Positions 8,607 to 61,021 of a stretch of DNA of 64,000 nt are shown piece after piece. The DNA comes from Patescibacteria group bacterium (GTDB lineage: Bacteria; Patescibacteriota; Microgenomatia; Levybacterales; UBA12049), in NCBI GenBank assembly GCA_035946335.1, contig DASYZL010000019.1:12414-76413 (forward strand). Reading direction: 5' to 3'. Every line of letters starts with the position of its first letter. Position 1 is the first letter of the stretch. Under the pieces are notes generated by a model. That model worked only from the letters and a program-made list of their open reading frames with translations, had not been told where the DNA came from and did not search any database. The position numbers and the translations under genes are program-made.

Positions 8607-10839
<2,233 letters not shown>

Positions 10840-10852
<13 letters not shown>

Positions 10853-12306
10853 AAATTCTGAAGTTTATTTCCTTCTTTTTTAATCACGCTGAGAAATTCG
10901 TCAATTGTTTGTAGTGACATAAATGATGCAAACAATTCTTGATACGTTTTTTCTTGTGCTTTTTCAATCAATATTTTCTCGGTAGAACGAACATGCTCCT
11001 TGTCGCCTTGGAGCATTCCGTTTAACAGTAATCCTATCATAACAAGCTGGATTTCAAGCGGAATGAGAAGGTGTTCTGACTGATCAAACAGGGTAAGAAT
11101 TTGCTCGCCGCGCTGAAGTGTTATTTTTGCATCTTCGGATAATTCCTGACCAAAATATGACAACGACTTGACCCGATTATAATCAGCCAGGTGTGCTGAA
11201 ATACGACTGGCAAGCTGAGATGAAAGTTTATTCTGTGTTTGTTTTCCTACACGGGTTATAGAAAGCTCAATATTGATACTCGGCCGTCTTCCCTCATAGA
11301 AAATATCAGTGTCAAAAAACAAATGGCCGTCAGTAATGCTCATGAGATTTGTTGTCAAATAATCACTCACATCTCCCTCAAGCGTTTCAACGACAGGAAG
11401 ACATGTTATAGCAACTTCTCCTTTTTCTTTATGCGTAAAGTTCCCTGCCCGCTCAAGCAAACGGGCATATGTATAGAAAATATTACCTGGGTACGAGTCA
11501 CGTCCGGGATATTTTTTGGCAATCAATGAGAATTCACGATAATACTTTGCGTGCGTCAACAAATCATCGAGCACGAGAACAACATCACTTCCTTTACTCG
11601 CAAAGTATTCCGCAATAGTCATCGCACTAAACGGTGTCAAATAGATAAGCCCAGGTGAATCAAGAGCATAAGAAGCAACGATAACCATGTTTTTTGCCAT
11701 TTTATTCTTGCTTATTATGCTCTCAACAAGAGCAATATCGCTCTTCTTTTTTCCAATTGCGCCATAGACAATTATTGCTCCTTCCGCTGCCTGTTCCTGC
11801 ATTGCGTTAAGAACAAATGAACTTTTCCCTGTTTTTCTGTCGCCGAGAATTAACTCTTTTTGTCCCTTGCCAAAGGGCAAAAGCATGTCAACTACAGTAA
11901 CGCCAGTCAGGAGCGGACGGGTAATCCGTTTTCGCCCTAAAATACCCTCAGGAACTGTGTGAACCGGAAACAAATCAGGAAGAGATGGTATGGGAGTAGA
12001 AAATGAGAGAGACCTACCAAGCGGTGAAATTGTTTGCCCTAAAAGGGCTTCTCCAGCAGGAATTTGTAATGCTTCATTCGTTCTGACGAGTCTGCTGCCA
12101 ACAGAGACTGGTTCCGAAGAAAATACGAGAACGCTTGCTTCATCTTTATACAATGTGAATACTTCACCTATTTGTCCGTCTTCAAATAATACTATTTCTT
12201 TTATTCTTAACCCGGGTAAACCTCTTACCGCAACGACCGGGTGATTAATCCGGATTACCTCACCGTACTCCTCATATGTATTAAGATAGTGAGAAAATGT
12301 CTGCAT
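10840..12306 (-). CDS. atpA: F-type ATP synthase alpha subunit.
   Basis: 488 aa with GDRKTGKSSFVLNAMQEQ (alpha P-loop) and the LLRPPGREAYPGD-like motif (REFSLIAKKYPGRDSYPGNIFYTYARLLERA). Confidence 0.92.
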
Positions 12307-12312
12307 AGCATT

Positions 12313-12558
12313 TTATTCTGCAATCCCAAGTTTTTTTGCAATAGTATAGTCCTTATGTTTTCCATTGTACTCGATAATTGCTCCTGCAATAAGATTTGTA
12401 TCTATGGTAATATCCAGTTGCACTGGCTGATGGATTTCTTCTGTAAACCAGTCTCTGATTGATGCAAGCTGTTTTTCCGTTGGATGAAACGCCAAAGTGA
12501 TATGTGCTACTTGTGGCATTGCTTTACCTGTTTGAGGAGGTTTTTCTATAACAGTCAT
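12313..12558 (-). CDS. atpH: Truncated ATP synthase delta (OSCP) subunit. Only the C-terminal domain is present.
   Basis: 81 aa. ...QLDITIDTNLIAGAIIEYNGKHKDYTIAKKLGIAE aligns to the delta C-terminal domain (..[27 protein letters not shown]..). Its start overlaps the atpF stop in an ATGA arrangement, which suggests translational coupling. Confidence 0.65.
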   Translation of the reverse strand: MTVIEKPPQTGKAMPQVAHITLAFHPTEKQLASIRDWFTEEIHQPVQLDITIDTNLIAGAIIEYNGKHKDYTIAKKLGIAE

Positions 12559-13220
12559 AGGAAAATACCATCTTCCTTGGCTTCTTCTAATGCTTCCTGG
12601 AGTAATGCCTGGTGATAGGAGGCAGGAATACTCTTTTTCATTACTTCCCGATACGATTTTACCACCAGCTCATTTACCTCAGCTGCTGCTTTTGATACTT
12701 GATCCTTTTTGTATTGTTCAATCATAGTGCGCGCTTCGGCCAACTCCTCATCGATAAATTGTTGTAGTGAACTTTTATTATCTATGGTTTCTTTTTGTAA
12801 ATCAGCGAGAGCGGCTGCAAGCAATACCTGACTTTTTTCCTGTATGGACTGTAAGGTAACAGTGAGGTTTCTCTTGTATGCCTTCAGATATTCTGCTGAA
12901 ACAAGAGAAAGTGAGTCTATGTCTTTCTGTAATAATTCCTGAACTGCTTTATCGAGTGTATTATGCACATCTGTTTTTGTCTGACCTGTTGCTGCGAGCA
13001 TTTGAGCAGATAAATCAGCTGCTTTTTCCACTATATTTTCTGCCTGATTCTGCCCGCTTTGAAGAATAGATTGGTAGTTATTTAATGCATGTGCTTCTTT
13101 ATCCTGAAACGTTTTCTCTTTTTTTAATAAAACGTAGACAAATAAACCTAAAGAAACGAGAACAATTAATCCAAAAAAGAAAAAAATATCCGTAATAAGC
13201 GGTGAAGTAAAAATATTCAT
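12555..13220 (-). CDS. atpF: ATP synthase b subunit (one N-terminal TM plus a long helix).
   Basis: 221 aa. N-terminal TM: IFFFFGLIVLVSLGLFVYVLL. The remainder is predicted coiled-coil, in the usual position between c and delta. Confidence 0.7.
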   Translation of the reverse strand: MNIFTSPLITDIFFFFGLIVLVSLGLFVYVLLKKEKTFQDKEAHALNNYQSILQSGQNQAENIVEKAADLSAQMLAATGQTKTDVHNTLDKAVQELLQKDIDSLSLVSAEYLKAYKRNLTVTLQSIQEKSQVLLAAALADLQKETIDNKSSLQQFIDEELAEARTMIEQYKKDQVSKAAAEVNELVVKSYREVMKKSIPASYHQALLQEALEEAKEDGIFL

Positions 13221-13984
13221 ATCCGTAATATCAGGTATCCCATGAAGATACCTGTTAATAATATTATGATAACCATAATGACGTTTAGCAATATAGAAAG
13301 TTCAATCATTTGGCCAGCTAAAGGGTTTCTACCGATTGCTTCAATACCCCGATGGATAGTTTTTGAAAAAATAAGAAATCCAAGACCAAACGATGCTAAT
13401 ATAACAAGAAGAGCAACGAGTAGCTTCAGTGCGACAACGGGATCTTCATATGTTGCAATTTCGCTTAGATTAAGCACATCGAGAAACGGTATGACAACAG
13501 GACTGGCAAATTGTTGGAAATGAATATTTATGCTTACCGTAATCTGCCTGACCTCATTTTTAGATGCGAAGGAAACAGGGTTGACAGACGCTCCGATAAC
13601 ATATCCACTTGTCACTGCTTTCTGACCTACTCCAGGAATTGTTGACGTCGTAATGAAATCACCTTTTTTTAGGTTACCATTGATTCCCGATACGTTAACG
13701 ACAGCATCACCAATATTAATAACCGGATAAGTTTTTGTTGCTCCAGGAACTTCAATGGTAATTGCAGGATTGGCTATAATCACACCTGTTATTAGCTGAT
13801 CATAAGCTTTATTACTCAAGTGATATCCTTGGGGTGAAAAGGAAACTATATCTCCAACGGCGATATTTTTATCGGCTAAAGGGAAATAGTTTGCGATACC
13901 TATTGAAGAAGCAAGTATTTGAACTGGTAGAATAAAACTTAACAACAGAATAAATAAAAGACATAAACCAATACGTTTTCCCAT
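13217..13984 (-). CDS. atpE: ATP synthase c-subunit (C-terminal ~65 aa hairpin) fused to a ~190-aa N-terminal signal peptide plus extracytoplasmic domain.
   Basis: The C-terminal LIFSKTIHRGIEAIGRNPLAGQ...LLTGIFMGYLIL aligns with c-subunit TM1-loop-TM2 (PS3: LIVSRTIEGIARQPE...). The N-terminal part has a signal peptide (MGKRIGLCLLFILLLSFILPVQILA) and the GD.VS...IPGVG domain also found in the two giant proteins. Confidence 0.65.
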   Translation of the reverse strand: MGKRIGLCLLFILLLSFILPVQILASSIGIANYFPLADKNIAVGDIVSFSPQGYHLSNKAYDQLITGVIIANPAITIEVPGATKTYPVINIGDAVVNVSGINGNLKKGDFITTSTIPGVGQKAVTSGYVIGASVNPVSFASKNEVRQITVSINIHFQQFASPVVIPFLDVLNLSEIATYEDPVVALKLLVALLVILASFGLGFLIFSKTIHRGIEAIGRNPLAGQMIELSILLNVIMVIIILLTGIFMGYLILRI

Positions 13985-14299
13985 AGGCAGAAAGGAAAGA
14001 CAACAATAGTGTTCTTCCTTTTTCAGTTTGGGTTAATTTGACTGAAAAGTCAATGTTTTTCAGAGTGAGCAATCCGCATTATGTTGTAGCTACAATCACT
14101 TTTCTTCTTCCATCAGGAGAATCAATGCTCGCTAATCTTCTTCCATTTTTCACATTTACATTAAATGTCCAGTTAACAGTCTCTCCTGATTTTCCAGACA
14201 GATTTGACATCGTAATATCAACTTCACCTATTCCCTCCTGACCATAAACTACAGGAATAGCTCTCACTTTTTTTCTGTTCCCTGAAATGGATCACCGAC

Positions 14300-14581
14300 T
14301 TAATTCAGAAGTCCGGGAAGATCAGTCGTTGTAAAATCAAATGAATACAAACGCCAACCTGCTTGATAAGAACTGTCTGAAATAATTGCGCGTACGGCAA
14401 GACGAACTTTGTCAGTAACTTGTCCTTCTTCAGGCGATTGCCAATTCGCTGCACTAAGTGAGAAATTTTCCTGGCTCGAACGATATTGTAAAACGAGATT
14501 TATTCCTTCTACAAGTAAACCTCCTCCTATTACTGCTCCAACACACCTTGCTCTTTCTTTTAATATTTCCTTTTTTTGCAA
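14300..14581 (-). CDS. Hypothetical small protein upstream of the atp operon.
   Basis: 93-aa ORF only. There is no recognisable motif, and it is not an a-subunit (not polytopic). Confidence 0.3.
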   Translation of the reverse strand: MQKKEILKERARCVGAVIGGGLLVEGINLVLQYRSSQENFSLSAANWQSPEEGQVTDKVRLAVRAIISDSSYQAGWRLYSFDFTTTDLPGLLN

Positions 14582-14728
14582 CGCTTTGGCTGCGACAATT
14601 CAGTCATACAATAAAATCATATATCACAATAATATGTATGCATCAAGTCAAATTTCTATATTGAATTTGCAAGACATTTTTAAGAAAAATCCCTTGCAAT
14701 TCTGCTCTTTATTTGGGAGAATACCTGT

Positions 14729-26797: not shown

Positions 26798-28225
26798 ATG
26801 AAATTAAAAGCACTTACTCGTTGTGTTGTTTTTTTATTTGTTTTTATTACACTTCTTGCTTTTGGAGCAAAACAATCTCATGCTGCAACATTAACTTCTG
26901 TCTCTGATACCCTTACTACTTCCCGCCCCTCCCCCTCAACGCCACTTTCTGCTGATGCTCTTGTAGGCTCAGGACAGGTAACTGTTGTTAATAATGGATC
27001 AACATTTTTAGCCTCAGACAGTGCAGAACTCTTTGTTGATAACACCTATGAGACACAGCCAATTGCAACCGTCGCTGCCATTGCATCAACCTATAATGTT
27101 TTCTTCACCGGAACAACTGCTAATTTTCATCACGCAGGCACAGTTTTAGCGGTTCCCATTACCGCGATGCATACAGCGAAGTTTACAACTGTTACATCGA
27201 TTCCTGCAGCCGGTAGTATCCAGATAGCTTTCCCTAAATCTGCTTCTACTGATTCAAATCAGGCTTCTCCTTCTGCATCCACTTTTATGCCGAATGGATT
27301 GGCTAGCGCGAACGTCGTCACCAATCAAGGTGGTATTAGCTCATGCTCATTAGTGGCATATGCAGCAGGTAATGCTCCAACAGTTAATTGTAACCTTTCA
27401 GCAACAATTTCAGGAAACACTACTATTGATATATTAATAGGGTGTAAATCTGGTAGTTCTTCCTGTACACCGAGCAATCAGGTTCCCACCTTGATCAATC
27501 CGACAAAAACTGCAATAAGCGGGCTTGCAGACACATGGAAGGTTAATATAAATACCTATAGCGGTGCGAGTGGAACCGGATCTATTCTTGATTCAGGATC
27601 AACCCTTGCAGGCACAATAGAATCAGTGAATGTCTACGCGCATATTGATCCGACATTTACGTTTCAGATTTTCGGAGTTGCCAATGGCACATCGATGAAT
27701 ACTGTTTGTACATCAAACGGCACAACGACCCAATTCGGAACTGACACAACACCTACAGCAGTCTATTTAGGATCATTACTCTCTACGAATATAAATTATG
27801 AAGCTCAGGAAATGAAAATCACGACAAATTCCGGTACAGGCTATACTGTTACTGCAACTTCATCAGGGCATTTGATTAATCCAGCAAATGGTTACTTCAT
27901 TGCAAATGCACAGGGAGATCCGACCAATAATGATACTCCTGTTCCGGTAACGGTCAGCGCAGGCAGTAACCAGTTTGGTATCAGCCCTTGTTCGAAAAGT
28001 GCAAATACAAATAATTTACCTTCAGCCGGAACCTGGGGACAAGGTGGAACACCAAAATTCGCAAATCCTTCTAATCTTTATTACTATACACTTATCAACG
28101 CAACAAGTGCGCCTTTAAGTACCGGAGACATTTTTTATGTGGAGTATGCAGCTACACCCCAGGGCAATACCCCTCCTGGGGATTATCGTACAATCATGAC
28201 ATATGTTGCCTCGGCAATATTCTAA
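26798..28225 (+). CDS. Secreted Thr/Ser/Gly-rich surface protein ending in PPGDYRTIMTYVASAIF (WxL-like candidate).
   Basis: 475 aa with a signal peptide (..FGAKQSHA). It is low-complexity and beta-rich, and shares its C-terminal motif with the 25046 gene. Confidence 0.5.
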   Translation: MKLKALTRCVVFLFVFITLLAFGAKQSHAATLTSVSDTLTTSRPSPSTPLSADALVGSGQVTVVNNGSTFLASDSAELFVDNTYETQPIATVAAIASTYNVFFTGTTANFHHAGTVLAVPITAMHTAKFTTVTSIPAAGSIQIAFPKSASTDSNQASPSASTFMPNGLASANVVTNQGGISSCSLVAYAAGNAPTVNCNLSATISGNTTIDILIGCKSGSSSCTPSNQVPTLINPTKTAISGLADTWKVNINTYSGASGTGSILDSGSTLAGTIESVNVYAHIDPTFTFQIFGVANGTSMNTVCTSNGTTTQFGTDTTPTAVYLGSLLSTNINYEAQEMKITTNSGTGYTVTATSSGHLINPANGYFIANAQGDPTNNDTPVPVTVSAGSNQFGISPCSKSANTNNLPSAGTWGQGGTPKFANPSNLYYYTLINATSAPLSTGDIFYVEYAATPQGNTPPGDYRTIMTYVASAIF

Positions 28226-30171: not shown

Positions 30172-31044
30172 TTAATATCCCACAAACCATGCGTGATGCA
30201 ATTTCTTGTTCCTAAAAAATCTATCGAAAAATTGTTTATCTTCTTTTGCAGGATTTGGGAAACCTGTAGTTTTTTCATTAAACTTTTTCCAAAGTATAAG
30301 AATAAGGATAAAGATTGCAATGATAAGTAAAAGAAAAATAAACCACCAAGTCGTTAAAAGTCCTATAAGTTTCTTCAGGAGATCATTCAAACTATTCCTT
30401 ACCTGTTCTTGAACGCCTAAAACCAAAATGGTTGCTTTATTTAATGGCTCTTGTGATTTTTTGCTTTGATAAACAGCGTCAGCAAAGAACTGGTATATTC
30501 CTGCTTTTGCCAGAAGTACGTGAATTTCATAATACCCGGTATTATCAGCTATTACTGTATAGGTTTTACCGTTATTGATATGTATTGTTACTCTAGCTCC
30601 CGACATGCTATAGCCAAAAATGATTGCATTGCTTCCAGCATTGATTTGCGTTCGATAGACGCCGATTGTGGGAGGAAGATAGAGGTCGCGAATGTCTCTA
30701 CTCACCATTACTGGCTGAATATCAAAACAGCTCTGCGACTCACCTAATCGCTTAACATCAACTGCATCAAAACATAACTTATTAAATCCTTTTCCTACAA
30801 CTAAGTTTAGGAAAGAAAAATAGCCATTGGCATCTGATACTGTTGATGCAAGGACATTATCATTATAGATAAGACTTATCGAAGCAAATCGTGCAATATA
30901 TCCATATATATTGATATAAAATGAGCCGATAATTGCAGAAACTTGTGTCTTGCCTGTCTCTTGGGTTTGATATGCTAAAACGTCCTTACAAAAAAATAAA
31001 GCGAGGCAAGAAATAATAACCAGTAAAGGCAGAATCTTTTTCAT
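30172..31044 (-). CDS. Secreted protein with two carboxypeptidase-regulatory-like (Cna-B-like) beta-sandwich domains and a C-terminal TM anchor.
   Basis: Signal peptide MKKILPLLVIISCLALFFC. Two ..SDANGYFSF.. / ..ADNTGYYEIH.. motifs. TM WWFIFLLLIIAIFILILILW. Confidence 0.5.
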   Translation of the reverse strand: MKKILPLLVIISCLALFFCKDVLAYQTQETGKTQVSAIIGSFYINIYGYIARFASISLIYNDNVLASTVSDANGYFSFLNLVVGKGFNKLCFDAVDVKRLGESQSCFDIQPVMVSRDIRDLYLPPTIGVYRTQINAGSNAIIFGYSMSGARVTIHINNGKTYTVIADNTGYYEIHVLLAKAGIYQFFADAVYQSKKSQEPLNKATILVLGVQEQVRNSLNDLLKKLIGLLTTWWFIFLLLIIAIFILILILWKKFNEKTTGFPNPAKEDKQFFDRFFRNKKLHHAWFVGY

Positions 31045-31770
31045 CGCGATTTCAGATTACTCATAAGGATAGCTATTACGATGCAACGAGAATCTACTCT
31101 TGATTGTATAAAGAGAAAAAGAAATACACAAGTAATAGCTTTGTGTCTATTTCTAGACCGGGAATCTATAGGAAGGAACATCATCGGAAATGCACAGCGA
31201 GAATAATGTCATTTTCATTCATCTTTAATCACAAATCGAGCATCGAGTGAATACCTGAAGCTGCTTTTTTGTTGGATGTCGCACTTAGAAGAAGATTATT
31301 AATCATTTAACAACGCAGTCAATCTAAATTAGGAGTTAATTTACATGACAGACTGATTTGACAGTCTAAAATAAATTAAAAATATGCTAGCACTAAGGTA
31401 TTTCAGTTGCTAATCTCAGTTTTAGGCATTATCTCATGCCTAGATAATTAGAGTATTCGTATTTTATTCATGTCTTTTCTCTGCTTTTGGAAGAAAATTT
31501 TATAGTAAGAGTATACATATATATTTTTCCAAAGATATATATTTATATAAAAAGATATATTATAACTTATTAAATTTTTTCATACTTCCTGAAAAGTTTG
31601 TTTTACTACTCTTTTTAACTACCTTTTTCACATTAATATTTCTCAAGTTTTCCTTATTACTTCCTGTGAAAATTTTCTTTTATTACCGTAAGAAATAAAC
31701 TCTAGGCCATTGACAAGTTATTGTATTATAACTAGTCTAAATATAGTAGTACTTATTTGTTGATAAACCG

Positions 31771-31785
31771 TATAATTTGTATAAT
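31771..31785 (+). promoter_or_regulatory. Tandem -10-like hexamers (TATAATttgTATAAT) upstream of the giant gene.
   Basis: Read from the sequence. They lie in a 700-nt AT-rich leader region and overlap the TTG start (31777) used by the ORF track. Confidence 0.35.
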
Positions 31786-31836
31786 CTCGAGGCTAAAGAA
31801 CAAATTTCACGGATTTCACAACTACTAATCAGACGA

Positions 31837-34800
31837 ATGGAAATTATTCAAAAATTTAAAGCTTATTTGCTTTCGCAGAGATCTGTTCCCTCAAAGGCAA
31901 CGGTAAAAAACTATATTGCTGATATTCATCACTTTATTGAATTCTGTGAAAACTCACTTCATCAGACGTTTTTACCTTCTGAAATACATGCGGAACAACT
32001 GGAAGCGTTCAAAATTAAAAAACTACAAGATTTATCAGCAAGTTCTGTTGAACGCCACTTCTCTTCACTTCGAAAATTCTTTATTTTCCTTAAACTCGAA
32101 GGATATATCGCTGTTACTCCGTTTGAAAAAGCCGAGATTGAAGCTCCTGTTTCAGTTGACCCGTTTCATTTAAAAGAATTTAAAGATTATCTCTATATCT
32201 ATAACGCATCGCATCTTACAATAAAAAACTACCTCATTGACATTAAGCAATTTCTCCATTGGGCAGAGGAAGTAACTAAAGTAAAAGATAATTATCAAAT
32301 AAGTGAGCAGAATGTCATGCATCTTGTGAATGATAAATTCATTGAGGAATATCGTGACAGATTACTCCGCGAGCAGATATTCTCTCCTGCTTCAATTAAC
32401 CGGAAACTTTCATCGCTTCGGAAATATCTTGCGTGGGCATCTGAACAGGGTTTATTGCAGTCGAGAACTCCTTTTATTACAAATATTACCGAAGATTTGC
32501 ATATTCTCCCACATACTGAAGCAGCAAATCTAACAGAATTCCCGATAAAATCAGGCTCATATTCAAAAATTCCTCCGGTGAGACTTTTTCAGAAAATACA
32601 TGAAGGATTCGATCTTATATTTGAGTATAGCGTTATTGTTCCTCTTGCAAAAGCTGCAGGAACATTCGGATACCACTTCTGGGTTATGAAAGGTAAACCA
32701 TTATTCGTGACAACAGCGCATATTGGTTTTTCACGTCTAAAAAATCCAGTACGATTTCGTAATATATCAAAAGCTGTCTATGAACCTCTTTCTCTTTCAA
32801 CAAAGCATTTTCCGCTGCATAAAAAAATAATGCATCATATCCGTTATTCAAGGCCGGACTGGTATCGCAATTATCGCTCTAATGCTGTAAGTGCTTATTT
32901 TAACTTAGCGATAATTGGAATTTTTATCCTTGCAATAGGATTCAGTGGCTATCTTGCCTTCGGCAGAAGATCACAATCAACGTTAGCAGCTCTCCCTACT
33001 GCTCCGCCAAGAATTTTATCTTTTCAAGGTAGACTGACAGACCAAAATAACAACGCAATAACAATAAACTCGAATTTGCGTTTTGCTATTTATAATGACA
33101 CGTCCGCCACTGGCTCCGGGCACATACTGTGGCAAGAAGTTGACAAGGTTACTCCCGACAGTGATGGCGTGTTTTCAGTTTTATTAGGTAATGGCTCTTC
33201 CTGCGGAGCTGATCCTACTGTGGTTGCTACTGGACCATGCCAGATTCCCTCAACACTTTTCACGCAGAATGCAACGCTTTACCTTGGTGTTACCATTGAA
33301 GCAACCTCAGAACTTACTCCGCGACAGCAACTTGCTACCGTTGCCTATGCCACAAATGCTGAAACCTTACAAGGACTTCCCCCAATCACTGCTGCTGGCG
33401 CAGGAACAAATAATGTCGTACTCGCACTTGATGGTTCGGGAAATTTATCTATTGGTGCTTCAACAACGTTTCAATCAACTTCCGGACAATTTACTCTTTC
33501 GGGAAATTCTATTGTACTCAATACAAATGCGGCTTCTAACGGCAACATTGTTTTAGCGCCAAATGGTTCGGGATTTATTGACCTTCAAAAACCACTACAT
33601 AATAGTACTTTAAATAACAATATCACTTCTGCTGCGGGGGCAGTAGAAGTGGATGGTCTCCTCGCAATATTAGCCACAAGCAGCGGGCAATCAGCTTTCA
33701 CTATCAATCAAAACGGAGCGGGTCCTATCATTAGCGCAAGTAGTAGTGGGAATGCTAAATTCACTGTTGATAATAGTGGAAACGTTACGGCGAACTGGTA
33801 CTATACAGGACTCGGTAATACTTACTATATCAATAACGCTACATCTAACCTTAACTCACTCACTTTAGCAGGAAACTTTAGTCTTTCGGGAAATGTCACG
33901 AGCAACCTTATTCCTTCAGCAGCGGACACATATAACCTAGGATCTTTGGGGAACGAATGGAATACGTTATACGCAAAAAACATCATCACTTCTTCATCTG
34001 CTGGTATTGGAACAGGTTTGTTTGGCAATGCAGAGCTGGTTGTGAATCAACCAAATGCTGCGGGAGATATTTTCACAGCTTCACAATCAGGAAACACCAA
34101 ATTTACCGTCGGTAACTCCGGTTCTCTCACCGCTGCCACCTTTAATACTGCAAACGGTGTCATATATAGTACCAATACATCAGGACTTCTCTCAGAAACA
34201 GCTGCGGGAACAACAGGACAGTGTTTTACCGGAAACACAGGGAGTGCACCGACATGGTCATCCTGCTCCTCTGCTGCATCAAACTTCTGGCAACTCAACT
34301 CCGGTGCGCTTGCTCCACTCAACATTACCAATGACCTCCTGATCGGTGGTGTCTCAACAGGCAGCGCAACCACTTCCTTCCAGGTATTTGCCAAAGCATA
34401 CAGCAATGATCAGGGCACTGTTCCTGCAGGAACAGCAACAACCAGCGGAAATATTGTGTTCAACGGAACTGGAACACAAGCATACAACCTTCTCAATAAC
34501 TCCTCCCTAGGTTTTTACACTTCCTACGGTGGAGACAAAGGACTCAGTGCCACCCCATCCCTGTTCATTGCCAACAGCGGAAGTAACGGGAATGGGAGTG
34601 GCTTTGTTGGGGTAGGGACAAACAGTCCAGGAGCAACACTTGATGTGAATGGCAACCTGCTCCTTGGTGCAAACAGCACCATTGATGCAAGATCCTCAGG
34701 AACCCTTACCATTGGTAACGGAGCAAATACATCAGGATTAACCCTTGGCAAATCAGGGGTAACAACAACATTCAACTCAACCTCATGGACTGCAACACCA

Positions 34801-37800
34801 ACCATTAGTGGACTCATCACGGCAAACGGAGGGTTAACAGTTGCATCAGGAAAGAACCTGATCCTTTCAGAACTGACTGCTGGCTCCGTACCGTTTGTTG
34901 GTGCCAGTAACATACTTTCCCAGGATAACAGTAACCTGTTCTGGAATTCCGGAAGTAAACAGCTTGGTATTGGCGCAAATAGTAACCTGGCAGGAACACT
35001 GGACGTGAGGACAACATCAGGAACCCTTTCTGTGGCTTCCATCTCAGGAGCTACCTCTTTTGCTGGACTTGTGGTTGATAACTCAGGTGTCGGTGATCTG
35101 TTCACTGCGTCATCATCAGGACTCAATCGATTTACCATTAAACAGAACGGAAACATTACTGATACAACTGCAACCAGCGTAAACTTCTCTGGTGCTGCGC
35201 TCACTGTTTCTTCGTGTACTGGATGCGGTGGAGGATCTAGTACATGGACGACCTTTACTAACAATTCCAATACAATCATCGATCCGAATCCTTTGACTGA
35301 TGCCCTGTCCATCGGGAACGCTGGAACAGGCAATTATCTTCCCTTCTCGAGTTTCTATGTTGAACCCTCCTTTAATTCTAAAGGCAATGCATTAGTAGGC
35401 ATTAATCAGACAGGTGGAGGCCCAATCTTTACTGCTTCGCAGTCAGGGAATACAAAGTTTGTTATTGACAACGCTGGCAACGTTGGGATAGGGACGACGA
35501 TACCATCTCAATCTTTACAAATTGCAGGAGGAAGTGTTTTGCTAGATAATGCCCAGTTTTACGAATTTAAAGACCATGCATCTGGAGCAACAAGAGGCAT
35601 ATTGACTTTAACCTCAGCGGATAATGTACAACTAAACAATGGAGCCGGAACCAATGGAGGAAATATACAAATAGGCATCACAAACTCTGCTAATACTACA
35701 GGTAAGATTGAGTTTTTAAATATAAATTCTGGAGGCACAGAGGTAGAAAGGATGCGACTTGATCCAAATGGACTTCTCGGTATTAATACAACATCTCCTC
35801 TAGGAATTCTTGATATAAGAGGAAACAATGTTAATGGGACGAACCCAATGAATGGCACCATCCCAATTGCCTCTTTCTCCGGTCAGACTTCTTTCGCCGG
35901 ATTGGTTGTTGACAACTCCGGAGTTGGAGATCTATTTACTGCATCATCGTCAGGATTGAATCGGTTTGTTATAACTCAGAACGGGAACGTTGGGGTGGGC
36001 ACAAGCACCCCAGCTCAACCGTTGACGATTAGCGGTACCAATAACTTCCTCGCACAATTAAATAACACCTCTGATTATGCCAGACTAAGACTAAATGGAG
36101 CTATCAATAAAGGAAGTGATTATATTTTTGGTTCTAATGGCAGTTCTCAGTTTGGTATGTATACGCAGGGCGGGAGTGGCGGCAATAATGATTTAGGATT
36201 TTTTCCTAACGATGGATCAATACCCGACTTATATATAACAAATAATACAACTAGCTCAAATACTATCGCAATGGGTGGCGGATTGAGTCAAGGAATGACT
36301 CCACTTGGCACGCTTGATTTGAGAGCTGCTTCTGCAACTCTTCCCGTTGCCTCAGTTTCTGGTAATACCACTTTTGCTTCTCTAGTCGTTGACAACTCGG
36401 GAGTTGGCGATATATTTACTGCTTCATCCAGCGGGCTGTCACGATTTACCATCCAGCAAAATGGTAATATCGTGCTTGGTGCTGATATATCAACACCCTC
36501 TGCGCTCACTGTTCGAGGCGGAATAGCTTCAGGTACCAACACTACAGGAGGAAATCTCACGTTTAATGCTTCCAATGGCACAGGTACAGGTGGATCAGGT
36601 TCTGTGATCTTCCAGACTGCGCCAGGAGGGGTGACTGTTGACTCGACAGCATATACTGTCACGGCAGCGGGTCCCTCCACGGTAAGCTGGAAACATACAG
36701 TCGGAACGGAAAATAATATGCTCTTGATTGTCAATGTCGGGTTGAGTACGGGTGCAGTCACGGTTTCGGGTGTAACGTACAATGGTGTCAGTTTATCTCA
36801 TATGACTTCAGCACCGGAACCTTGTACCGTCAACACGAGCTGCACTGCGGACATGTGGTATCTCAAGGCACCTGCAAGCGGGACAAACAGTGTCATTGTG
36901 ACACTGAGCGGAATAACTGCCAATGTCGTTGGCTCATCGATCTCACTATATAATGTTGATCAATCAAGTAATACTTTTGGAACCGCGGTGGTAGCGCAAA
37001 ATAGCAGTACCGGCACGGTGACGAACACAGTTACAACAGTCGCAAATCAGCTTGTTGTTGATTCCTTTTCAGCCCATGGAAGCGGCATCTGGAACAACGT
37101 CAGTCCCCAATCCGGATATGGCGAAGATAACAGCCATGGCTGGGGAGCTTCCTCTTATCAGGCAGCAACCGGAACAAGCACAGCAATGTCATGGAATAAT
37201 ACCGGGACATTGGATAAATGGGCGGATATTGCTGTGCCTATCAACCCGGTCTCAACGACCAGCGATAGCTTAGTTAACTCCCTATCCATAAATCCAGACG
37301 GAAATATAACCATAGGGTCTGCCTCTGCCCAGGAGCGTTCGCTTGCCGTCACCGGCACGTGGGGTGGCAATGTCGTTGTTGATGCACAGTCAGAAACAGG
37401 CGGAACAACACTTATCAACGAGTCAACGCCCGCTCTCGTGTATGATTTATCAAACAATCAGGGAACAAATGCAAACAACAGTACTGTTACGTTCAATATT
37501 ACCGCTTTGCCTAATGTTGATGGCACGTTCGCATTTATCCGTTCGCACGCTACTAAAGGAGTGACAGGATCAAACCAGAAAGATACTGTTGTGGTGCAAA
37601 TCAATGGAACAGAAATTACCTCAATTACAACAACAGCAAACACTACTGCGCAAGATGCATCAGGGAACTATGTGGTTTTTCGCTCAAACGGCGCGTGGCA
37701 TCTGGAGCTTGGGACCAACCAAAGTTCCAGTGACACTACCGATCTTGCTGAATGGATTCCGTTTGCTGGAGTTAAGCCACAACCTGGAGAGCTCGTCAGT

Positions 37801-39792
37801 GCTGCAACGCAATCAGGAGTTACTGTGCAAAAAACACAGGGTGCATATGACAGTAAGGTTTTAGGCATTATCACGACGAATCCGAATACGGTGTACGGAA
37901 AAGAAACGGCAGATTCAATTGTACTAGCCCTTGCCGGACGGGTTCCCACCATTGTTACGTCACTTTCCGGGAATATCGGACTGGGTGACGCGATTGTTTC
38001 CTCTCCTATTCCGGGTGTTGGTATGATTCCACAGCAAGCTTCAGAATCAGTCGGAAAAGCACTGGAATCATTTACTCCTACTGCTTCCACTTGCCAGACG
38101 GTATCTTCCTATGATGCCATTTCCTGGCCGGATGATAATGGCACAAACCAAAACCATCCGTGCTATGGCATTCCTGTTTCAGGATTTGACCAGCAAACGC
38201 AACAGACACTGATAAAACAATACGCTCTACTTCCTACAGACATTGTCTATGTGGGGAAAATTATGGCACTTACTAATCTTTCATATACCAGTCCTGTTAT
38301 CGCCTTAACAAATGCGGGAGACCTTACCATTGAACCAATTGCTTTAAGTGGTAACGGTATTGAAACGCAATATGGGGTTAAGACTACCCAAGGAAATCTT
38401 CTTACAGAGATCGGTTCTTTTGCAACAGCAGTCATTGGCAATATTCGTGCAGGTGGCATTTCAGCATCTGCTATTGCAACTAATTCCCTTTCCGTTGCTA
38501 CAGATAACGTTTCCATTAGCGGACAACCTCTTCGTGACTATATCATTGGGGTCGTGACTCAGGCAAACTTACTTGCGCAAAATAGTATTACTTCTCCTCT
38601 GGTAAGCGTTAGCACGATCCATACGAATATTATTTCACCGTTAACGAATACATCTCATATTGCTCTTGACCTTTCAAACTCTAGGTTAGAAATCAAAAAA
38701 GACGCAAGCGGTTCTGCTGTGGCTAGTATTGATACTAATGGCAATGCATCATTTTCAGGAACACTTAACTCGGAAAATATTGCAGTCAATAACGATGCAA
38801 CTGTTTCCGGAACACTCCATGTCCATAAAATCGTGGCTGATGAAATACTTGGGCAATCGGAAAATGTGAGTACAATTGCTGCGCAAAATATTACGAATGT
38901 TACGAATATTTATTTCGCAACACCCTCTGGGACACCTGCTGCTGAAAATATCGCTACAGGACTTGGCAATACAAGCACTCAATCAGGTGATTTGCTAGCA
39001 TCAGGCTTTTCACAGGCTTCACAATTCATGAATATTGCATCTTTTTCAGGTGAATTTGCCTATATCCCCAATCTCCACGCAACAACAGGATTGTTTGAAG
39101 AAGGACTTGCAGCGTTGGGACCGACAAGCCTGACGGATACCTCTATCAATGGACAGCTTACTATCGGCAAGCAACTCCTGCTTGCTGATACCAGCATTAA
39201 CGTCTTGGGTGGAGATCTGGAAATTCAACCACTGAAACAAGGTGGCGTATCGTTTGCAGATGGAACTATTTATATTGATAATAATGGCAATATCAAATTC
39301 AACGGCACAGCTACATTTAATGGTAAACTCGCAGTAAACATCATTTCCCCTTTAGGGAATGATAAAAATCTTAATCTGCAACTAGGAAAAAATGCAAGCG
39401 GCTCCGCCATTGCAATATCTGATTTGTCTGTAAACAATGCTTCAGGTTCAGGAATCTTTACTATTGACCAGCTAGGTAATCTGGTTGCTTCAGGAGCGGC
39501 AACTATTGCAAAGCTGAATTTTAATCTTGTACAACCGGCGCAGGCGTTATCTGATACAGAAGTTGTCGCGACCGGCTCAGCAGGAACAGCAGCAATTGCA
39601 CCCTATCAAACAGAAGTAACCATTGATAATCCTAATGTCACAGAAAATTCACTGATTTATATCAGTCCTGTTGGCAATATTTCCGGACAAACTCCCTATC
39701 TACGAAGGCAGGTTGCCGGTAGTTCATTTACCGTTGGTATCCCGCAAGACACACAATCACAAACATACTTTAACTGGTTAATCGTCAACTGA
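31837..39792 (+). CDS. Giant surface repeat protein of ~2650 aa. From N to C: two tandem phage-integrase-type SAM-like core-binding domains (cytoplasmic), a TM signal-anchor, SISG..[20 protein letters not shown] modules, the GD.VS...IPGVG domain and a C-terminal YFNWLIVN tail.
   Basis: 8-kb ORF. ATG at 31837 preferred ([11 protein letters not shown]...); the ORF track uses TTG 31777. The SAM-like repeats are [15 protein letters not shown]...[29 protein letters not shown] and [15 protein letters not shown]...[52 protein letters not shown]. Modules are shared with the 2998..8166 protein. Confidence 0.8.
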   Translation: [2651 protein letters not shown]

Positions 39793-39861: not shown

Positions 39862-41958
39862 ATGTTTATGGAAACGGAAACATTTATAATAAAAAATAGA
39901 AAAAGAATCACTCTCATGCTTTCTCAAGCAACTATTTTTGTGTGGGGCATATTTTTTCTTTTCTTCCCGCTTCTGTTTCTGACGAATTTTACGGATGTAT
40001 TTGTCATACCCAAGCAAATCCTGCTTTGTCTTGCCGCGCTGTTGAGTATGGTTTTATGGGCAGCGCGTCTTTTTGTTAGCGGTAAAGTATCTATTCGAAG
40101 AACTTTCTTTGATGTTCCGCTGCTTTTGTTCGCAGCTGCACTGCTTCTTTCAGCAATTTTCTCAATTGACCGGTTCGATTCATTAACAGCAGTAGCACCT
40201 GTGCTATTTGGAGTGATCGGATTCTTCAGTATCACCAATGTTGTGCGAAAAGAGAATGCGGCACTCTTTCTACTCGCGTCATTTGTATTAAGTGCAATTA
40301 TTTGTTCACTTTTAATAATCTTCTCCTTTGTTAAGGTATATCCGCTCCCACTTGCCGCAACACATTTTAGGCAGTTTACCCCTTTTGGTTCCCTCCTTGA
40401 ACAGTTTGTGTATCTTCTTGTTGTCTTACTTATCACGCTATATTTTGCACTCCCGGTAATAAAAGGTAAAACAGATGCAAAAACGATTAGCGCAGTTATC
40501 GCAACACTAATCCTTTTTGCGGGAATAATAATAACAGGCATTAATATGGTACAAAATCCTCCGGTATTATTACCCTTTGAAACTGGTTTTCAAACAGCAT
40601 TTGCCGCGATTTCCCAAGACAGTGGACGAATAGCGCAAGGATTTTTCTTCGGAAGCGGGTACGGAACCTATGATACCGATTTTACAAGGTTTAAACAGCC
40701 AGCTTTCAATGCAAACCAAACGCTATGGACTGTTCCGTTTTCAAATTCTTCAAGCTATATCCTTGAGCTTTTAGCAACAGGAGGCTTTCTGGGTATTATG
40801 ACTTTTCTCTTTTTGCTTTTCCGTATTGTGGTTAATCCGAGTAAGAAATTTGCCAATCCAATCTTTTTGTCATTACTTACGCTTGCTTTAGCAACCTTTC
40901 TTTTACCATTCTCTTTCATAGAAGTAACGTTGTTACTTATGGTTTTGGGTTTGTTCGCAAACTTCGATGGATTACGACACACAAATAAGTACTTTGATGT
41001 CGAGTTACATGTTGTTGCATTGAAAAAAGGCCTATTATCTTTTGAGCAGGAAAGGGACGCATACGAAAATACAAACATTGTAGCCTATGGCATTGGTATC
41101 GTCTTTCTTGTACTCGTTGGGCTGCTGGGATATCTTGCTGGAACATATGTGATCGCTAATGCATATTTTCAACGGTCTCTGATAGAAGCAGCAATGAACA
41201 ATGGCAGTGCAACCTATCAGGATGAAGCTACTGCCATCAATATATTTCCATATCAAAGTATATATTACCGTATTTTTTCACAAACAAATATAGCACTGGC
41301 AAATGCGTTGAGCTCCTCGTTTACAAAAAACGGGAGTAAGCCAACACAACAGCAACAAAATACACTGTATCAATTTATTCAACAAGCAATTACCACAGGA
41401 AAACAAGCAACAATACTTTCTCCTCTTTCTGCTGCTGATTGGCAAAATCTTTCATCAGTCTACCGGTCATTAATCGGGGTTGGACAGAATGCGGACAGTT
41501 TTGCTGTACTTGCTTCACAACAGGCAGCGATACTTGATCCGTCGAATCCACAGGAATATATTGCACTTGGAGGTATTTACTACCAACTTGGACAATATGA
41601 TAGTGCAATCAGGCAATTTCAAACAGCTACCAATCTTAATCCAAGCTACCCAAATGCGTACTACAATTTGGGTCATGCGTACGAGCAAAAAGGAGATTTC
41701 CAAAATGCACTGAGCCAATACCAGATTGTCAAATCTTTAGTAACCTCACAAACTGATAAAAACCAAATCACTGCGGATATAAATACTATTCAGTCAAAAA
41801 TAAAAAATAATACGCAGCAACAAGCGCCAACAGCACAGCAAAACCAGTCATTAACAACACCCGTTGCAAATCCAACAAGCACGATTCTAAAACCCACGAA
41901 AAAACTTGATTTAACTGCTTCAACATCAGCTCCAATCAGTATATCCCCAACTCCTTAA
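39862..41958 (+). CDS. O-antigen ligase/polymerase-like polytopic membrane protein with C-terminal TPR repeats.
   Basis: 698 aa with about 12 TM helices, then TPR-like repeats (..YIALGGIYYQLGQYDSAIRQFQTATNLNPSYPNAYYNLGHAYEQKGDFQNALSQYQ..) and a Q/T/P-rich tail. Alternative start at 39916. Confidence 0.6.
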   Translation: MFMETETFIIKNRKRITLMLSQATIFVWGIFFLFFPLLFLTNFTDVFVIPKQILLCLAALLSMVLWAARLFVSGKVSIRRTFFDVPLLLFAAALLLSAIFSIDRFDSLTAVAPVLFGVIGFFSITNVVRKENAALFLLASFVLSAIICSLLIIFSFVKVYPLPLAATHFRQFTPFGSLLEQFVYLLVVLLITLYFALPVIKGKTDAKTISAVIATLILFAGIIITGINMVQNPPVLLPFETGFQTAFAAISQDSGRIAQGFFFGSGYGTYDTDFTRFKQPAFNANQTLWTVPFSNSSSYILELLATGGFLGIMTFLFLLFRIVVNPSKKFANPIFLSLLTLALATFLLPFSFIEVTLLLMVLGLFANFDGLRHTNKYFDVELHVVALKKGLLSFEQERDAYENTNIVAYGIGIVFLVLVGLLGYLAGTYVIANAYFQRSLIEAAMNNGSATYQDEATAINIFPYQSIYYRIFSQTNIALANALSSSFTKNGSKPTQQQQNTLYQFIQQAITTGKQATILSPLSAADWQNLSSVYRSLIGVGQNADSFAVLASQQAAILDPSNPQEYIALGGIYYQLGQYDSAIRQFQTATNLNPSYPNAYYNLGHAYEQKGDFQNALSQYQIVKSLVTSQTDKNQITADINTIQSKIKNNTQQQAPTAQQNQSLTTPVANPTSTILKPTKKLDLTASTSAPISISPTP

Positions 41959-42171: not shown

Positions 42172-44006
42172 CTATCCGCCTTTTTGAACGGATACTTCCC
42201 TCAAAAACTCGTTATAATCTCCCCCATCAACCTGTCCATCGTCATCAAGGATATCAGCTCCAGGTGAGAGCGTTGATGGACGGAACTGTGCTGGACAGAG
42301 TGAGGTATTGACTTGCGTACCGTAGCAGGAAACGAGAATATTATAATCGGTAAGATCAAGTTGGCCGACGTTCACTATATCACCATTCACCAGAGAGACA
42401 GACGGAAGGGTAATAGTCTGTCCTTGAGAAGCAGTAATAACCCCAGGTATCTGTTTGGAAAGAAATCCATCCATTTTCACCGTCACCGTGTACTGTCCTG
42501 AAGGAAGATTATTGGCTCCAACTGTTCCCTGGAAATTGCCACTTGTGGGAACATACTGAACGGTGCCTGTGACCGTAGCCACAGGTGCGCTTGTTGTTGT
42601 GAGGGTAACAGTGACAGCTCTTGCTGTGTGTAATGGTGCAGTATTCTTTCCAGAAGAAGATGATACATTGTCGCCACAGTTGCCTAACCCATGTGGACAA
42701 ATGGTTATATGGAATGTTGTTTGTCCTTGGGAAACTGTCGGTACTGGGGTAAGAGAAAAAGTTGGTGTTGGCTGTAGTGATGGCATACCTGCTGAACTTA
42801 TACGAAACAATCCGACACCGTGCGCTGCAATAGACGAGCTAATAGAATCCGTTGTGGTTGAAGTGGTATTTGTCCAAAGATTATGCATCGAATATGAACC
42901 AGCTTGTGTTATGCCAATTGCAGAAAGTGTTGTAGTAATTGTTGCGGTAGTTGTTCCTCCATTAAAAAGCAGTACTGCGTAGTCTCCATTTGCAAGCGGT
43001 CGCGCTAATACTTCTCCTGTTCCCTGAATATTTATTCGTTGTGCGGCTTTTCCTAATGGATCCTGATCAATTGCAATAACATCTTTATTGGTAAGTATTG
43101 CTTTTGTCGTTGCCGACATCGTACGTAAATCATTCCCTGCCAGCAGCGGGGCCGCAAGCATTGCCCATAAACTAAAATGGGTTTGATCTTCTATAACACT
43201 CATGCCGCCGTTTCCCACTTCCAGCATGTCAGGATCATTCCAATGCCCTGGTCCTGCGTGTGATGAGAGGGGTATCTCATCATGATAGAGAGTGGTTATA
43301 CTGGTAAAATTATCCTTAATATCCTGAAAAAACGCGCCATATTTGCGTATTGATACAGTGCGTCTATTTGTTTAAAGCCCGTATTTGCAACATGCATACT
43401 GATGACCATTGGACGGTTGTATTTTATAGAAAGATCAGAGAATAATTTTGCAGAGTTTATGATATCTTGTTCGGTTTTCCACGCACTGCAATTATCAATT
43501 TTCACAAAATCAACACCCCATGACGCGAACGTTTTCATGTCAATATCTTCATGCCCTAAACTTCCTAATAATCCACGACACGTTGTTAGTCCTTCTGTCG
43601 TATAGATGCCAAATTTTAATCCTTTTGCATGAACATAATTAATAAGATCAACAACACCATTTATACCGTTTACAGAAGGAAATCGTGTTTGATCAACACT
43701 AATTGTTCCATCTGGATTTCTTACCGTTCCTGCCCAGCTATCATCAACACTGAAATATATATATCCCGCGTCTTTTAAACCGCTATTCACCATAGCATCT
43801 GCTTCCTGTTTCAATATCTGTGAATTAACAGCATCATGAAAATGATTAAATTGATCCCATCCCATGGGAGGCGTTTGCGCAAGCTCGTTTGCCCCTATTG
43901 CCTGCTGTATGATTACCTGTTTTTGTTGGGTAAAGATGATGAGCAGAGGAAACGTGATTCCTAAAAACAAGAGACCAATAACTGATAAGAGCGATTTTGC
44001 TCGCAT
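42172..44006 (-). pseudogene. GH27 alpha-galactosidase with a C-terminal beta-sandwich and dockerin-like module, disrupted by a frameshift in a T6 homopolymer.
   Basis: The N-terminal ORF 43296..44006 has ..PPMGWDQFNHF.., KFGIYTTEGLTTC and DFVKIDNC. The C-terminal ORF 42172..43227 starts MLEVGNGGMS...SLWAMLAAPLLAGNDL, and its upstream in-frame sequence reads ..HAGPGHWNDPDMLEVGN. The frames switch at 43327-43332 (AAAAAA on the plus strand). The C-terminus has a dockerin-like DILDDDGQVDGGDYNEFL. Confidence 0.75.
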
Positions 44007-57679: not shown

Positions 57680-57687
57680 ACTGTCTT

Positions 57688-57722
<35 letters not shown>

Positions 57723-57783
57723 CCGGCGAACAGCCGGACCCTTGGGAGCTTCTCCACCCCCAGGATGTGATGAGCCGACATCG

Positions 57784-58085
57784 CTGTCGAAAATTCTGTT
57801 ACCAGAAAATGTTGACTATCCCTTCATCCTCTGTAATCAGAGGAGCTAGCCGTATGATAGAAACTATATATTTTATCATTAGATAAAAGTATTCTATCTC
57901 ATCGTGTAATACACGAATCAGTCGATACGGGGTCACGTCTTTTTTGACTGACTTCCCTCGGTATTGTCCAATTTTTACGTTGGAGTTTACCGATTTGAGC
58001 TAGTAAATTTTAATTCCATTGCATGGGTTAAATTCAATGGATACCCAGACTAAAACGTTACCGTTTCGGCGCCCCAATGTTATTA
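57784..58085 (-). mobile_element. ORF-less intron (~302 nt) in the 23S at the E. coli ~2500 site.
   Basis: The exon GGCACCU | ... | CGAUGUCGGCUCAUCACAUCC is split. The intron ends in G (..UUUUCGACAG) preceded by a GUAA-capped hairpin and a GAUAGUC (P7 3'-like) element. The 5' exon ends in U. Confidence 0.65.
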
Positions 58086-58128
58086 AGGTGCCAAACCGCA
58101 TCGTCGCTGTGGACGCTTGGATGCGATC

Positions 58129-58161
<33 letters not shown>

Positions 58162-58202
58162 AAGTTCCGCGCTTACCACTAAGCATCGGAAGATCACTAA
58201 CA

Positions 58203-58234
<32 letters not shown>

Positions 58235-58619
58235 CGCAGTTAAGCTGGCTTATGCGTTTGCGCTATCACCTTGATTTCTTTACAAGGTTAGCCAACCTTT
58301 GTACGACTCCGTTGCGTTGTAGGAGTCAATCGCCCCAGTTAAACTGCCCATCAAGCACTGTTCCGTTGCCAAATTTTTATGTGGCTCACGGTAATGGTTG
58401 CTCATTCCAAAGAGAGGTATTTCACTATCGCCAAAGCTCCCTCCTATTCTCAACATATAAAATGAACTCCCAAATGCCAAACTACAGTAAAGCTCCCGGG
58501 GTCTTTTTGTCCATGCATACCTAGGCCGCGTCTTCACGGCCATCTCAATTTCGCCGAGTAGATGGTCAAGACAGTTGCTCAGTCGTTCTACCTTTCGTGC
58601 GGGTCGGAACTCCACGATT

Positions 58620-60990: not shown

Positions 60991-61021
<31 letters not shown>

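Follow-up and report, generated by a model that had tools for sequence, protein, structure and literature searches.

Tandem recombinase-type core-binding domains at the N-terminus of a giant membrane-anchored fibre protein of Levybacteria, with a dedicated GTATAAT array in the leader of its gene

What is a recombinase-type, DNA-binding fold doing at the start of a giant protein whose remainder is predicted to lie outside the cell? Bacteria of the candidate phyla radiation (CPR), or Patescibacteria, are thought to live attached to host cells, and both host recognition and gene regulation in these organisms are largely unknown. Here, we focus on a stretch of 64,000 nucleotides (nt) from a Patescibacteria group bacterium (GenBank assembly GCA_035946335.1, contig DASYZL010000019.1, positions 12,414 to 76,413 of the forward strand; hereafter the window), and in particular on an open reading frame (ORF) encoding 2,651 amino acids (aa). 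A preliminary description of positions 31837-32980, which are codons 1-381 of this ORF, read the N-terminus of the protein as two integrase-type domains followed by a membrane anchor and extracellular repeats. We find that the presence of two core-binding (CB) domains without a recombinase at the N-terminus of a fibre-like protein is real and far beyond chance, and that the gene carries a dedicated cis-element, two to three GTATAAT units followed by CTCGAGGCTAA, downstream of a canonical promoter, which is new here. Whether the first reads the second is weighed below.

The N-terminus of the fibre protein matches the Phage_int_SAM_1 family (PF02899) with E=1.5e-20 (73.7 bits against a Pfam cutoff of 22.3) over two stretches, at approximately aa 5-100 and aa 112-204, and the SAM_4 and SAM_5 families likewise exceed their Pfam cutoffs. 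The preliminary description had suggested a check against such profiles, and its two tandem phage-integrase-type domains were recovered with strong matches. The domains, CB1 and CB2, are 28% identical to each other (E=7e-9). NCBIfam models for XerC, XerD, XerA and XerS also match twice, each time through the first ~94 of ~295 positions alone (positions 2-94, at 57-74 bits against equivalog cutoffs of ~330); the catalytic part of these models finds no match along the whole chain of 2,651 aa with the threshold relaxed to E<=10, and at the same threshold the Pfam catalytic domain PF00589 is absent across the full protein, in agreement with the earlier statement that no R-H-R-Y domain lies downstream. 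An AlphaFold2 (AF2) model of the N-terminal part, built from 30 family sequences, shows CB1 and CB2 as two four-helix bundles with a predicted local distance difference test score (pLDDT) above 90 (94-97 in CB1), and its best fold matches in the PDB are the CB domains of IntI4, XerA, lambda Int and Brujita Int. The protein thus shares with XerC, XerD and XerA the N-terminal four-helix CB fold and its signatures, T..Y..D...F and S..R.LS.LR.F, but differs from them in that the CB domain is tandemly duplicated and that the catalytic domain, with its R-K-H-R-H-Y residues, is missing. As the catalytic domain is what defines a tyrosine recombinase and the search for it came back negative, the fibre protein is not one, and the GenBank product name of the deposited identical protein (HEV2339978.1, 'site-specific integrase') is wrong. 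As a separate observation, chain 14 of PDB entry 9i5v (401 aa), deposited as 'Ribosome-associated translation inhibitor RaiA', has a Xer-type-recombinase-like N-terminus that aligns to CB1 with E=0.002, and its molecule name looks odd.

The same arrangement recurs in a large family. A search with aa 1-448 returned 67 proteins, all of the same layout, most of them named 'site-specific integrase, partial' and derived from metagenome-assembled genomes (MAGs) of Patescibacteria or Levybacteria; most matches above E=1e-45 are 31-50% identical over the full query. When 1.84 billion cluster representatives were scanned exhaustively with HMMER, 195 clusters passed E<=1e-30, with protein lengths of ~1,300-6,048 aa, and a scan of one genome per species gave at least 183 encoding loci. 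Complete ORFs in the related loci (designated here by L numbers) range from 1,272 to 3,710 aa, besides two truncated cases. The preliminary description had called for a survey of homologues, and the order of CB domains, linker, transmembrane (TM) segment and fibre is conserved in ~195 clusters; this architecture is not an accident. Credibly named records are almost all Levybacteria or Levyibacteriota (Microgenomates, CPR). Dozens of MAG records titled 'uncultured Gammaproteobacteria bacterium' (L004-L083) also hold the Levybacteria-type gene, array and synteny; we take these as mislabelled bulk submissions, with names that look like placeholders.

Within the family alignment the N-termini of homologues align to the methionine encoded at 31837 and conservation starts at residue 1, rather than at the TM segment, where a true start downstream of the two domains would have placed it. 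The recognition helix reads T22-V-K24-N25-Y26 in CB1 and T128-I-K130-N131-Y132 in CB2, and helix D reads S70..R73..SSLRKF and S186..R189-K-L-S-S-L-R195-K-Y, respectively. Residues K24, N25, Y26, D29 and R73 of CB1 are present in 27/27 aligned homologues, T22 and S76 in all sequences that cover those positions, and K130, D135, R189, S192 and S193 of CB2 are invariant in all 30 aligned sequences. Overall identity among the aligned sequences is merely 27-51%, so that the fixation of these signature residues argues for purifying selection on a working fold. The same search also returned a genuine recombinase with PF00589 (P0066), in which the recognition helix reads T-V-S-G-Y, with S-G in place of the K-N of the fibre protein, and whose helix D (INRRLSSLRKYLAWA) differs little from the one in CB2; a Xer-like gene is therefore the probable ancestor of the family, which later fixed recognition residues of its own.

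Between the CB domains and the membrane lies a linker of ~150 aa that the preliminary description had passed over: a TM segment does follow the CB domains, as it had proposed, but not directly after CB2. The linker is basic and carries the motifs YSxFPPxRLxQK, KGKPxF, YAPLxIS and HHxRYxRPxWYxxY, which match no known family in a Pfam scan; R339, P340, W342, Y343 and Y346 are nearly invariant in the family alignment, and the AF2 model places helices at aa 246-284 (long and partly hydrophobic), 327-337 and 341-348. The signal-anchor is the sole segment of the protein with a Kyte-Doolittle value above 2, and an N-terminal signal peptide is absent from the 2,651-aa protein. The 2,256 aa that follow the TM segment have an isoelectric point (pI) of 4.4, against 10.2 for the linker, and consist to 46% of S, T, N and G. 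By the positive-inside rule, a basic N-side and an acidic C-side predict a single-pass, N-in/C-out topology in which the CB domains face the cytoplasm, as the earlier proposal of an N-in signal-anchor would have it. A second, moderately hydrophobic helix (aa 260-278, Kyte-Doolittle 1.23) lies within the long linker helix and may lie on the membrane.

The predicted ectodomain, of ~2,270 aa, resembles a phage tailspike or fibre, as judged from its sequence: a conserved base, a hypervariable middle and a putative module of the type found in phi29 gp12. When it was compared by tblastn with 81 related loci, aa 396-650 were found in nearly all of them, aa 700-1950 in almost none and aa 1950-2651 in ~48. 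The beta strands of the base begin at aa 397 in the AF2 model. The base shows a weak, sub-threshold match to NF053851 (Bdello_MAT_N; E=0.029; 14.2 bits, where the cutoff is 60), and the protein therefore falls short of the family cutoff for the mosaic adhesive trimer (MAT) proteins of Bdellovibrio. Those proteins are reportedly phage-fibre-like adhesins borne by cells that live on other bacteria, a description that would suit the fibre protein as well. Pfam searches with six ectodomain segments gave nothing significant, including for the C-terminal ~550 aa; the central shaft and tip (aa ~700-1939) had no sequence matches in Pfam, PHROG or the PDB, and the whole protein had none among PDB sequences and hit only 'integrase' in PHROGs, via the CB domain.

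The link to Peptidase_G2 emerged solely once a family profile had been built, from an alignment of aa ~1910-2130 segments of 23 loci. Eight of these 23 orthologous segments match PF11962 (Peptidase_G2) individually, the best at E=1.2e-10, and the 23-member profile matches phi29 gp12 (6qz9_A at E=4e-9, plus 3suc_A and 3gqh_A) with alignments that span the SDFAEY site of autocleavage; in the 23-locus alignment, D1969 and E1972 do not vary. In fibres of the gp12 type the C-terminal module aids trimerization and then undergoes autocleavage. The likeness to gp12 extends to a conserved anchor end, a variable shaft, a putative C-terminal chaperone module and the invariant D and E of the D-x-A-E motif, but gp12 sits on a virion and this fibre is anchored in a cell membrane by its N-terminal TM segment. 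The preliminary description spoke of ~2,200 aa of extracellular repeats; a giant, predicted extracellular part stands, and it can be specified further as tailspike- or fibre-like with a putative Peptidase_G2 module. The C-terminal ~550 aa may belong to the released chaperone portion. The coordinates of all parts of the locus are collected in table 1.

Table 1. Features of the fibre gene, its leader and its downstream neighbour (positions in the window)
Feature	Position	Strand	Details
Conserved promoter	31699..31738	+	ACTCTAGG 31699-31706; -35 TTGACA 31710-31715; 17-nt spacer; -10 TAGTCT 31733-31738
Repeat array	31761..31796	+	9-bp units TGATAAACC / GTATAATTT / GTATAATCT; tail CGAGGCTAA; candidate operator for CB domains
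Fibre gene ORF	31837-39792	+	ATG 31837; stop 39790-39792; 2,651 aa
CB domain 1	31837..32142	+	aa 1-102; Pfam/NCBIfam matches, AF2, fold matches
CB domain 2	32170..32448	+	aa 112-204; PF02899 positions 1-82 of 83, best Pfam stretch
Conserved basic juxtamembrane segment	32449..32904	+	aa 205-356; family alignment, pI 10.2, AF2 helices
Predicted TM signal-anchor	32905..32961	+	aa 357-375, LAIIGIFILAIGFSGYLAF; Kyte-Doolittle 2.34; AF2 helix 350-376
Conserved fibre base	32989..33786	+	aa ~385-650, starting LPTAPPRILSFQGRLTD; tblastn 77-81/81 loci
Hypervariable central shaft/tip	33934..37653	+	aa ~700-1939, S/T/N/G-rich; tblastn 1-30/81 loci
Putative Peptidase_G2-type (phi29 gp12) intramolecular-chaperone autocleavage module	37654..38136	+	family profile against PDB
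D1969-L-A-E1972 motif	37741-37752	+	predicted cleavage T1968|D1969
Conserved C-terminal ~550 aa and stop codon	38137..39792	+	tblastn ~47-49 loci
Downstream partner gene	39862..41958	+	698 aa; ~11-helix WaaL/O-antigen-ligase-fold membrane domain and C-terminal tetratricopeptide repeats (TPR)

The region upstream of the fibre gene is unusually long and AT-rich (780 bp in the window, and similar in most relatives), and k-mer counts over 59 such regions show GTATAATC, CCGTATAAT and related words to be strongly over-represented. These words belong to an ordered arrangement. The element ACTCTAGG is followed by TTGACA, a 17-nt spacer and TAnTCT, a layout present in most homologous loci; then, after 15-45 nt, come two to three (G/A)TATAAT-NN units of 9 bp and the tail CTCGAGGCTAA. 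The array was found by a strict pattern in 76 of 80 related loci and is shifted or degenerate in the other four, and among 171 unique instances of the array, 170 have TTGAC no more than 110 nt upstream. Taken together, the 171 sequences give the consensus ATAAtcnGTATAATcnGTATAATcTcGagGCTaaa, with high information at positions that the search pattern does not fix, namely the G before each box, T16, G18, G21, C22 and T23. In the window, the array lies at approximately +17 to +52 from the putative transcription start site (TSS) and ends 40 nt before the ATG. The deposited version of the protein is 2,671 aa long because it was called from a TTG at 31777, 20 codons upstream of the ATG at 31837; this start lies inside the DNA element, and since the alignment of homologues also favours the ATG, it is probably wrong.

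When metagenomes were scanned for the DNA pattern alone, 120 contigs were found: a family gene follows the array in 109 of them, 7 are too short to tell and 4 have none, so that 109 of 113 assessable contigs carry the gene downstream. Within the 64-kb window the array occurs once, against 0.06 occurrences expected. Together, these counts indicate that the array is dedicated to this gene family and is not a general promoter feature. Distances from the -35 element to the array cluster near 42, 52-53, 62-64, 71-72 and 78 nt; the loci are phylogenetically related and vary in repeat number, and for this reason no helical phasing is claimed. The array is present in L206, a distant variant with TVKNY retained, and only a degenerate trace of it is left in L205, a single-CB variant from which the motif is absent, a weak and anecdotal correlation.

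Several other features were noted in the same leader region. The sequence TTTCAC(A/G) occurs in one to three copies between the array and the start codon (in the window at 31800-31830, ATTTCACGGATTTCACAAC; also in L004, L015, L018, L027 and others), and in some loci it sits upstream of the array instead. A small peptide of 38-83 aa with a C-terminal TM segment (e.g. MKGFKVG...LSFVLSEAYLLFFTK) is encoded between the array and the giant gene in a minority of loci (L033, L035, L038, L044, L024, L054, L080, L090, L182 and L206) and is absent from the window. Whole genes can also intervene, encoding a ~155-aa protein in L023 and L026, which from its appearance we take to be of the GxxExxY type, and a 234-aa protein in L024; these move the array 500-1,100 nt from the ATG. 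An invertible promoter or shufflon was considered and rejected, as a repeat search over 30900-32100 gave short AT-rich chance repeats and no flanking inverted repeats.

An experimental precedent exists for a CB domain without a recombinase that reads -10-like boxes just after a start site. Escherichia coli FliZ is a repressor of transcription that binds sites similar to extended -10 promoter elements; one of them, a -10-like box unused as a promoter, lies just downstream of the flhDC start site and serves feedback control, and R108 in the FliZ recognition helix is needed for DNA binding (PMC3367168). FliZ matches PF02899 (E=8e-15, aa 90-163) and, like the fibre protein, has no catalytic domain. 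Its T-V-R108-E-Y aligns by MAFFT with T-I-K130-N-Y of CB2, the equivalent of T-V-K24-N-Y in CB1, and the position of R108 is occupied by a basic residue in all aligned homologues (K130 in 30/30 and K24 in 27/27). This comparison uses MAFFT and the shared Pfam family; when the family alignment was matched to the one FliZ sequence by hhalign, the result was out of register and of low probability, and it was set aside. FliZ, as known from E. coli and Salmonella, differs in being a soluble global regulator of 183 aa with a single CB domain, whereas the fibre protein has two CB domains, a membrane anchor and a fibre of more than 2,000 aa, and its candidate site is dedicated to one gene.

In predicted topology, the closest comparison is with ToxR, CadC and TcpP, which likewise combine a cytoplasmic N-terminal module of DNA-binding type, one TM segment and an extracytoplasmic domain. 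Those proteins use an OmpR-type winged helix and a small periplasmic sensor in place of the recombinase CB domains and giant phage-like fibre seen here; no OmpR/PhoB winged helix was found in the fibre protein, whose N-terminal Pfam matches are to Phage_int_SAM families alone. ToxR binds tandem direct repeats. The T-(V/I)-K-N-Y recognition helix shared by CB1 and CB2 would likewise fit identical direct repeats such as those of the array.

By analogy with these systems, we tentatively favour the reading that the fibre serves host contact and that its CB domains, tethered to the membrane in a ToxR-like topology, bind DNA and regulate their own gene in a FliZ-like way; it is a plausible account, if somewhat less likely than not. 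The regulatory or DNA-tethering module suggested in the preliminary description gains circumstantial support in this way from the -10-like array and the FliZ precedent, DNA binding itself being something that we infer. Each fibre would present its CB domains to the cytoplasm, and if the fibre is trimeric like gp12 there would be six of them. The CB domains would have kept the ability to bind DNA and, as in FliZ, would read the -10-like boxes of the GTATAAT array that precedes their own coding sequence; being translated first, they could act in cis on the gene copy under transcription. Occupancy of the array would then block or pause RNA polymerase, giving feedback on an 8-kb gene that is very costly to express. 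On the outside, the fibre would trimerize, cleave itself at T1968|D1969 and present its variable region at the far end, as the tip with which an epibiotic cell recognizes its host, and the state of the fibre (assembly, host contact or proteolytic release) might modulate occupancy of the array. The fuller version of this scheme, in which a giant phage-derived host-contact fibre doubles as a transmembrane transcription factor that reads its own leader array, with assembly, attachment or release feeding back on expression, is a speculative extension that we regard as possible and rather doubtful.

Several observations weigh against autoregulation through the array. The CB domains are near-neutral (pI 7.0 and 6.3) rather than strongly basic, and isolated recombinase CB domains usually bind DNA weakly without their catalytic domain. 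Both the array and the recognition helix are invariant, so that there is no covariation between them to exploit, and the two might occur together simply by coincidence, through joint inheritance of a promoter feature. The position of the TSS is inferred, and the hydrophobic helix at aa 260-278 leaves some doubt about how the linker is arranged at the membrane. On the fibre side, the Peptidase_G2 region of the window's own protein is below Pfam significance by itself, and the part following the cleavage site would comprise ~680 aa here against ~160 aa in gp12. Finally, tandem -10-like boxes in initially transcribed regions are known sigma70-dependent pause sites.

The last point leads to the principal rival, that the array and the CB domains are unrelated, which is conceivable and by no means negligible, if still unlikely. 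On this view RNA polymerase would pause at the array in a sigma70-dependent manner, or the array would serve as a loading site (e.g. for an antitermination factor that a gene of 8-20 kb requires) or amount to no more than redundant -10 boxes, and the CB domains would have another cytoplasmic role, such as nonspecific tethering of the fibre base to the nucleoid, docking of full-length Xer or another partner, or the handling of host-derived DNA. The boxes are perfect matches to the sigma70 -10 consensus, in what is presumably the early transcribed region; at lambdoid late promoters and at lacUV5, elements of this type are responsible for sigma-dependent pauses, giant genes often need dedicated processivity factors, and the modest charge of the CB domains fits a role other than array binding. 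Left unexplained, however, is why a recombinase-type fold with invariant recognition residues is kept at the N-terminus of every member. Furthermore, the G before the boxes and the 9-bp CGAGGCTAA tail are conserved like the hexamers themselves and neither is needed by sigma region 2, and FliZ shows that CB domains are able to read such sequences (PMC3367168).

That the array acts as RNA is improbable. It could serve as a 5′-leader element for an RNA-binding protein, for translation or for stability, and the CB domains might bind that RNA; it does lie between the putative TSS and the start codon, its tail contains GAGG, and in a few loci the ATG is merely 12-18 nt past it. However, the array and its flanks show no consensus structure (an alifold energy of 0.0 kcal/mol, equal to that of column shuffles) and the leader has no Rfam match. 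A translational role is made unlikely by the distance from array to ATG, which varies from 12 to more than 1,000 nt among loci and in some of them accommodates the inserted genes described above.

Very little speaks for the CB domains being an inert remnant of a recombinase-adhesin gene fusion, at most a cytoplasmic stuffer before the signal-anchor. The missing catalytic domain and the near identity of helix D in CB2 and P0066 are consistent with such a Xer-like origin, but the signature residues are (nearly) invariant across ~195 clusters whose aligned members share 27-51% identity, the domains are modelled at pLDDT above 90 and their duplication is conserved, and the 'remnant of integrase-mediated gene assembly' entertained in the preliminary description is hard to reconcile with this. 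That the protein is a genuine site-specific recombinase with catalysis elsewhere in the chain or in trans is scarcely credible, for despite the name given by the Prokaryotic Genome Annotation Pipeline (PGAP) to HEV2339978.1 and most homologues, neither PF00589 nor the Xer catalytic part matches at E<=10, everything beyond aa 376 is predicted to be extracellular, and no invertible-segment repeats flank the promoter.

The fibre gene has a regular neighbour. Of the 43 loci with room for it, 30 carry an orthologue of the partner gene on the same strand and no more than 4 kb downstream, and in 25 of these the distance is at most ~530 bp. Its product has the multi-helix membrane fold of WaaL-type proteins, and sequence profiles detect its C-terminal TPR alone; the membrane domain gave no Pfam (Wzy_C) or NCBIfam match even at E<=10. 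It thus differs from WaaL and PglL in lacking a sequence-level family match and in its added C-terminal TPR array. The partner may act on the fibre as a glycan transferase or as an assembly factor; in the scheme favoured above, of a membrane-tethered autoregulator, it would glycosylate the fibre or aid its assembly.

Two related loci depart from the common organization. In L001, a closed 1.14-Mb Levybacteria chromosome (10001-14627), the family gene is split into ORFs of 677 and 868 aa that overlap by 14 nt, probably by a frameshift or sequencing error, and a second gene containing Peptidase_G2 lies ~3.5 kb upstream. In L002 (8001-15899), a short, divergent member of 743 aa is followed by a gene for a 1,750-aa protein and by a bAvd-like gene, a hint of a diversity-generating retroelement; the boxes upstream of this member read GTATAAA-N4-GTATAAT, with a spacing of 11 bp.

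We found no prior description of the family in the literature on Patescibacteria SAM-like, integrase or transmembrane proteins, CPR giant surface proteins or Levybacteria tailspikes. The sequences are already public under the name of integrases, and the architecture and the array are undescribed in the literature found. The hundreds of family genes deposited as 'site-specific integrase', often 'partial', inflate counts of recombinases and mobile elements in CPR genomes and hide a major class of surface proteins. The family unites a hypervariable phage-like fibre, a cytoplasmic module of DNA-binding type and an extremely conserved cis-element in a unit the size of an operon. If the proposed link between module and array holds, this would be the first membrane-tethered regulator built on a recombinase CB domain, a ToxR- or Notch-like signalling device made from the DNA-binding domain of a recombinase, and a concrete example of outside-in signalling or feedback in ultra-small episymbiotic bacteria with few conventional regulators.

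Other features of the window were recorded in passing. A second giant gene (2998-8166, minus strand; 1,721 aa) has Kelch-repeat matches and is without CB domains and the FQGRL fibre-base motif. A 475-aa protein (26798-28225) shows a sub-threshold match to NF058581, the C-terminal domain of the CPR 'Pam pilus system pilin' (24 bits, below the cutoff of 55; E=3e-5). An alpha-galactosidase (Melibiase_2; 42172-44006, minus strand) is split into two adjacent ORFs, one (43296-44006) covering profile positions 1-167 and the other (42172-43227) positions 232-284 and the C-terminal domain; the split may reflect a frameshift, a pseudogene or a truly divided gene. Lastly, the 23S rRNA gene (57480-61518, minus strand) contains three group I introns (57480-57689, 57792-58095 and 59361-59566), and a 176-aa ORF within the rRNA span (58624-59154) could encode a homing endonuclease.

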